Source: Escherichia coli (GTDB taxonomy: Bacteria > Pseudomonadota > Gammaproteobacteria > Enterobacterales > Enterobacteriaceae). Taken from it: a stretch of DNA of 64,000 bases. The position numbers and the translations under genes were made by a program. Location: assembly GCF_003334305.1 (NCBI RefSeq), contig NZ_QOWS01000005.1, one strand, 5' to 3'. Shown one piece after another: positions 772-976 of the stretch (position 1 is the first letter of the stretch; each line of letters starts with the position of its first letter). Below the pieces are notes generated by a model. That model worked only from the letters and a program-made list of their open reading frames with translations, did no database searches and had not been told where the DNA came from.

Positions 772-976
772 GAACATAAATCCATTTTATCAATAAGATA
801 AGAGGAAGTGTCAGCTGACAAAAGGTATTCTATTTCATCTTTTGTCAACCATTCACAGCGCAAATATACGCCTTTTTTTGTGATCACTCCGGCTTTTTTC
901 GATCTTCATACTTGTATGGTAGTAGCTCAGTTGCGTAGATTTCATGCATCACGACAAGCGATGCAAGGAATCGAAC

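Follow-up and report, generated by a model that had tools for sequence, protein, structure and literature searches.

A perfect 12-bp palindrome between ynfA and rspA of Escherichia coli is most likely a chance sequence upstream of a deeply conserved rspA promoter module

The spacer between ynfA and rspA in Escherichia coli carries a perfect 12-bp palindrome, TGTCAGCTGACA, and raises the question of whether this symmetric sequence is an operator involved in the control of rspAB or simply a product of chance, the two options that the initial annotation of the locus had left side by side. The DNA analysed here (the window) is a stretch of 64,000 nucleotides from contig NZ_QOWS01000005.1 of the RefSeq assembly GCF_003334305.1. 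The sequence scan and the E. coli records place the palindrome at 809-820, with no strand assigned, and bear out both its exact sequence and its perfect symmetry: two arms, TGTCA and TGACA, with 2 bp between them and a centre at 814.5. The upstream neighbour is the ynfA coding sequence (445-771, plus strand) and the downstream neighbour is the rspA coding sequence (977-2191, plus strand); both identities, read from the open reading frames, agree with the RefSeq annotation. By direct count, the ynfA stop lies 37 bp before the palindrome and the rspA ATG 156 bp after it, since ynfA ends at 771 and rspA begins at 977, and the distances of about 40 and 160 bp proposed earlier were right. The gene order (ynfB, ynfA, rspA, rspB, ydfJ, ydfI, ydfZ, ydfH/rspR and ydfG) is that of an E. 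coli chromosome segment, with ynfB placed by this order at 1-309 on the minus strand. The gene of the GntR-family repressor of rspAB, ydfH/rspR, is the 228-aa open reading frame at 6613-7299 on the minus strand, as gene order and the published work on this regulator (PMC8249747) indicate. Since the strain is without the Qin prophage in ydfJ, which here is an intact open reading frame (3280-4647), a distance of only 3.4 kb separates rspB from this gene further downstream. In K-12, the Qin prophage lies between rspB and rspR/ydfH.

Palindromes of this kind occur in the window at the frequency expected by chance. We counted 15 perfect 12-bp palindromes, against 15.6 expected for a uniform random sequence and 15.7 ± 3.9 in 200 shuffles, which puts the whole class at chance level and agrees with the earlier estimate of about fifteen chance palindromes in 64 kb. 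No second exact copy is present within the 64-kb window and, when up to two mismatches are allowed, the motif occurs twice, against 2.26 expected. A relative with two mismatches, TGTCATGTGACA at 5274-5285, sits within the ydfI coding sequence and fits chance. The palindromic 12-mer alone folds at only -2.1 kcal/mol.

The sites through which rspA is regulated have been mapped elsewhere in the spacer. RspR (YdfH) is reported to have a single target, and Shimada et al. (2021, PMC8249747), who combined gSELEX with gel shift and DNase I footprinting, found that it protects one stretch of 31 bp with ATACnnGTAT at its centre. Their primer extension located the start of rspA transcription at a C that precedes the ATG by 30 bp. 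This start is position 947 of the window (plus strand), while the RspR box ATACTTGTAT, at the centre of the footprint, is found at 908-917 (no strand assigned) and overlaps the -35 region. The stretch occupied by RspR runs from about 897 to 928, and the only intergenic ATAC..GTAT of the window is the one at 908-917. From the sequence, TAGATT at 936-941 (plus strand) is a candidate -10 element. The CRP site of the promoter, supported by Reg-Seq, lies at 878-893 (no strand assigned); it has a TGTGA half-site at 878-882 and a weak right half, and it is centred at about -61.5 from the transcription start. The palindrome lies about 130 bp upstream of this start and outside the promoter; its centre is at about -132, with the centre of the CRP site about 71 bp and the RspR box about 98 bp further downstream. 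At the other end of the promoter, we also observed an imperfect 13-nt inverted repeat (938-972), GATTTCATGCATC and GATGCAAGGAATC, which pairs the -10 and transcription start region with the Shine-Dalgarno sequence of rspA. This repeat is kept in 31 loci from Escherichia, Citrobacter and Enterobacter, with almost no covariation; its 5' arm is mostly upstream of the published start at 947, and its role as an RNA leader hairpin is putative.

Mutational data are available for the same region, as rspA was used as a gold-standard promoter in Reg-Seq (Ireland et al., 2020, PMC7567609). Position 0 of that study, K-12 coordinate 1655186, is position 932 of the window (window position = 1656118 minus the K-12 coordinate), and the palindrome corresponds to 1655298-1655309 of K-12 (NC_000913.3). 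After conversion, the reported CRP activator region (-57 to -30) covers 875-902, including the TGTGA at 878-882, and the reported YdfH repressor region (-28 to +2) covers 904-934 (PMC7567609). The per-base information footprint amounts to 0.0019-0.0024 in the CRP half-site, with the CRP signal at 876-883, and to -0.0021 to -0.0028 in the RspR box; over -115 to -58, which corresponds to 817-874, it is at background (0.0005 or less). The palindrome bases included in the library are 817-820 only, and these are at background. Because the mutagenised fragment begins at 817, the left arm of the palindrome is missing from it, and both regulators were still reported. The main-text table of the study lists DeoR against rspA, but in the supplements the sites given for this gene are those of CRP and YdfH only (PMC7567609).

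The palindrome and the promoter sites also differ in their conservation. Species-representative genomes were scanned with RspA, giving 80 rspA loci from other species, which cover Escherichia, Citrobacter, Enterobacter, Klebsiella, Kluyvera, Buttiauxella, Rahnella and others and leave out E. albertii, E. fergusonii and E. marmotae. Of the 80 loci, 78 carry the core of the RspR box, ACTTGTATGG, and 77 of these 78 have a TGTGA half-site 29-30 bp upstream of the box; not one of the 80 has the palindrome. Conservation of the rspA promoter module is very deep. This sets aside the option of a YdfH/RspR or CRP operator at the palindrome, which the initial annotation had raised: the mapped RspR (908-917) and CRP (878-893) sites lie 60-100 bp downstream of it and are kept at a fixed spacing in 77 of the 80 species, against none for the palindrome itself. 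The option of a chance palindrome is the one favoured by the evidence, namely its chance-level abundance and its absence from all 80 loci of other species.

Two further observations concern the surroundings of the module. It corresponds to 878-923 of the window and lies about 110 to 60 bp before rspA in loci L001-L080; 77 of the 80 species (Enterobacteriaceae, Yersiniaceae and others) have TGTGA followed by ATACTTGTATGGTAGT at a distance of exactly 29-30 bp, and all sequence upstream of the TGTGA is lineage-specific. In Buttiauxella, Dryocola, Cedecea and others (L020, L023, L025, L027, L030, L033, L044 and L051), a long palindrome such as GAGTCACAAAATAATTGTGACTC has the conserved TGTGA as its right arm; it is located about 100 bp upstream of rspA and is absent from Escherichia and Citrobacter.

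The palindrome has not been kept even in the nearest sister lineage, Escherichia sp. MOD1-EC7003 (L001), whose RspA protein is identical to that of the window. At the position of the palindrome this lineage has AGTTCGCTGGCA, with 4 of the 12 bases changed. The two sequences show 15 differences over the 205-bp spacer, none of them in 901-976 and 4 inside the 12 bp of the palindrome (P = 0.007 for this pre-specified interval); after correction for scanning, the clustering of the differences gives P = 0.31. A template-switch origin of the four clustered substitutions was considered and rejected, since their clustering is unexceptional after this correction. The loci L002 and L003 are too divergent there to reveal the ancestral state of the 12-mer.

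The spacer itself differs in length among these loci. In 25 loci, mainly from Citrobacter, Enterobacter and Lelliottia, the entire ynfA-rspA spacer measures only 107-112 bp and is without the palindrome segment; the hairpin of the terminator (GGCGCGCATAGCGCC, then T6) includes the ynfA stop, and GTGATC comes directly after the T-run. In E. coli, about 97 extra bp stand between the ynfA stop and the CGCC-T7 of the terminator, and the palindrome is inside them. This insert (772-868, no strand assigned), which runs from the ynfA stop to the 3' arm and T-run of the terminator, is recognisable in Escherichia only, and its middle part diverges fast in the alignment. Searched by sensitive blastn in 5,377 E. 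coli genomes, 772-868 was found in one place per genome, with no annotated feature; being single-copy, it is not a repeated element, and a repeated or mobile intergenic element of the REP, BIME or MITE type is ruled out by the same count. Folding and alignments reveal at 857-879 (plus strand) a degenerate intrinsic terminator of ynfA, with a 3-bp GCG/CGC stem and T7, which folds at -2.4 kcal/mol in the window strain and in K-12, against -10.7 kcal/mol in the sister Escherichia and -11.9 kcal/mol in Citrobacter. Judging from these alignments, the Escherichia spacer appears to have arisen when about 97 bp entered the loop of the ancestral ynfA terminator (755-880). With so weak a terminator hairpin, ynfA transcription may continue beyond it as far as the promoter region of rspA.

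Of the 8 E. coli records inspected, 7 have an intact palindrome, divergent ones included (K-12, O158:H23, strain 131, GN06489, SCU-111, strain 582 and one metagenome contig, the only one yielded by a metagenome pattern scan for the region). This speaks against the chance reading, although the diversity of E. coli is too low to give it weight. Strain MEW (L087) has a deletion of 1 bp in the palindrome, equivalent to window 813, which gives TGTC-GCTGACA; despite this deletion, a predicted stem-loop located at 816-847 stays intact. In strain 582 (L088, 1190-2500), an element of the IS3 family, whose annotation is that of a transposase with programmed frameshift, stands 1 bp upstream of the palindrome (window 808/809), flanked on either side by a duplicated GAAG. 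E. coli strains tolerate an indel in the palindrome and an IS insertion next to it. Separately, we observed in strain 131 (L083) a G-to-A change of the RspR box at the equivalent of 914, giving ATACTTATAT. In the same strain, over the equivalent of 977-1063, rspA is truncated after about 29 codons, beside an integrase fragment with an Arm DNA-binding domain, which suggests an integrated element within rspA.

These data have to be weighed against other readings of the palindrome, one of which concerns RNA. The stem-loop at 816-847 (plus strand) has a 5' arm that starts with TGACA (816-820), the palindrome's right half; it was obtained by folding and is built on a 9-bp perfect inverted repeat, TGACAAAAG (816-824) and CTTTTGTCA (839-847), whose arms are 14 nt apart and which extends as RNA to 11 pairs, with -9.8 to -10.8 kcal/mol. 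For either strand, the predicted fold of the region 772-890 is more stable than those of its shuffles (z = -3.8 and -3.6). The window contains 46 perfect inverted repeats with arms of 9 bp or more and loops of 3-20 nt, against 4.8 in shuffles, and this roughly 10-fold enrichment places the stem-loop, unlike the palindrome, in a mostly non-random class. According to the folding predictions it is the only locally non-random structure; as the right arm of the palindrome takes part in it, the neighbourhood is not entirely random, which counts against the chance reading. The functional unit could then be this stem-loop in the ynfA 3' UTR, the palindrome being a by-product of its 5' arm: it would either protect the ynfA mRNA from 3'-to-5' exonucleases or cause a pause or a partial stop of transcription before the weak terminator (-2.4 kcal/mol) and limit read-through into rspA. 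RNAalifold retains the hairpin in a 7-sequence consensus, and the A-to-G change of the sister lineage at 818 keeps a G-U pair, on the plus strand only. However, covariation lends this consensus no support (term of +0.58), several pairs of the hairpin are disrupted in L001, L002 and L003, and the minimum-energy fold of L001 does not use it. The stem is A/U-rich and is followed by ACCAUUCAC; having no U-tract after it, it is not an intrinsic terminator. Moreover, the segment is absent outside Escherichia, 3'-end data for the ynfA transcript were not found in the literature, and Rfam covariance models gave no match in window 1-3000 with E-values up to 1, so that membership of an Rfam RNA family was rejected. 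We consider a function of the stem-loop as the source of the palindrome to be unlikely.

Other readings make the palindrome a binding site on DNA. Its perfect dyad symmetry and its intergenic position would suit an operator for an E. coli-specific DNA-binding protein, acting on events at the ynfA 3' end or on a secondary rspA promoter further upstream, and low-resolution gSELEX signals somewhere in the spacer count for it and against the chance reading: a peak of the sigma-70 RNA polymerase holoenzyme (Shimada et al., 2014, PMC3946193) and, in a study of RpoN and NtrC, an NtrC peak of 41% (PMC8743547), for which the supplement gives no NtrC site sequence. A promoter predicted by pattern in the former study, TTGTCA-17-TATACG (842-847 and 865-870; PMC3946193), would place the centre of the palindrome near -63. 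Against this, mutations across the predicted promoter, and indeed over 817-874, had no effect in Reg-Seq, and our scan of 700-1050 found no sigma-70 promoter-like or terminator-like site, a result by which a sigma-70 promoter or an intrinsic terminator at the palindrome was rejected. The NtrC box (core GCAnnAnnnTnnTGC) has no match with up to one mismatch in 772-976, and it was discarded as the source of the gSELEX peak. A DeoR-like factor would be another candidate. The DeoR operator is a 16-bp palindrome, TGTTAGAA.TTCTAACA, and the outer hexamers TGTCAG/CTGACA resemble its arms TGTTAG/CTAACA, at 5 of 6 positions on each side; since the central 4 bp of this operator are missing here, the spacing and the phasing of the half-sites are wrong. 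An operator of this kind would also be unconserved in the closest sister lineage, without a second copy in 64 kb, and indifferent to the indel and the IS insertion described above, and we regard it as very unlikely, even though no published mutation of bases 809-816 was found in the literature, a point that counts against the chance reading as well.

The known regulators of rspA fare no better at this place. GntR-family proteins bind dyad-symmetric sites, a preference that the palindrome suits, and an auxiliary distal operator located about 98 bp centre-to-centre from the primary RspR box, near the promoter that RspR regulates, could tighten the repression of rspAB through DNA looping. Yet the published footprint consists of one protected 31-bp region around ATACnnGTAT, TGTCAGCTGACA and ATACTTGTAT are unrelated, and the Reg-Seq construct without an intact palindrome still shows repression by YdfH; with the box invariant in 78 of the 80 species and the palindrome present in none, such a looping partner deserves next to no credence. 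A plain RspR operator was rejected as well, the palindrome being unlike ATACnnGTAT, about 132 bp upstream of the transcription start, without overlap with the promoter, and conserved in none of the 80 loci. The palindrome could also be read as two -35-like hexamers, one on each strand, of divergent or antisense promoters, for CTGACA is one mismatch away from TTGACA on both strands, or as a CRP site, as CRP control of rspAB had led the initial annotation to suggest. This is extremely improbable: neither strand offers a -10 element at 16-18 bp, and the promoter scan of 700-1050 was empty. CRP needs TGTGA-N6-TCACA, a 16-bp core with a 6-bp spacer; a CRP site was rejected because the arms here are TGTCA and TGACA with a 2-bp spacer and because the actual site is mapped at 878-893. 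More broadly, the E. coli-specific segment holding both the palindrome and the stem-loop might be a recently evolved regulatory element, either a 3'-UTR RNA structure that affects ynfA mRNA stability or read-through over the degenerate terminator into rspAB, or the operator of a transcription factor still to be mapped at this locus; we find this doubtful at best.

The reading that we retain, with a probability of about 0.7, is that the palindrome is a chance sequence without a dedicated function. It is the most likely one because the known sites of the rspA regulators sit 60-100 bp further downstream. Its location, its chance-level abundance, its lack of conservation and the mapped positions of the regulators are all observed here, and we infer that no protein binds it. 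As a chance sequence, it would have arisen where a TGTCA pentamer happens to abut GC-TGACA, the beginning of the 5' arm of the stem-loop. It belongs to the Escherichia-only spacer of about 97 bp that evolves quickly and separates the ynfA stop from what is left of the terminator. Regulation of rspA proceeds through CRP (878-893) and RspR (about 897-928), at sites in which the palindrome has no part.

This result removes a false lead: the operator reading of the palindrome is unsupported, and the palindrome lies in a non-conserved spacer and is of little importance, while the promoter sites of rspAB, already mapped, are here found to be deeply conserved. The window also presents a contrast of method, as perfect 12-bp palindromes are at chance level and stem-loops whose arms measure 9 bp or more exceed the shuffles about 10-fold, which makes stem-loops the better signal for such scans.

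Comparison with known systems places the palindrome and its surroundings more precisely. Like bacterial 3' UTR stem-loops that precede intrinsic terminators, the predicted hairpin at 816-847 stands between a stop codon, that of ynfA, and the T-run of a terminator, but it differs from them in having no U-tract after it, in being without covariation support and in being confined to E. coli. Set beside the DeoR operator, the palindrome lacks the four central bp. It shares with the class I CRP site of the rspA promoter its symmetric ends, TGT.. and ..ACA, and a position upstream of the same promoter, but its spacer is 2 instead of 6 bp, its arm is TGTCA instead of TGTGA, and its centre is at about -132 instead of -61.5. 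Finally, it resembles the RspR box (PMC8249747) in being a short perfect dyad within the ynfA-rspA spacer; its sequence is different, it lies about 98 bp upstream and off the promoter, and it is unconserved, in contrast to the box, which 78 of 80 species have.
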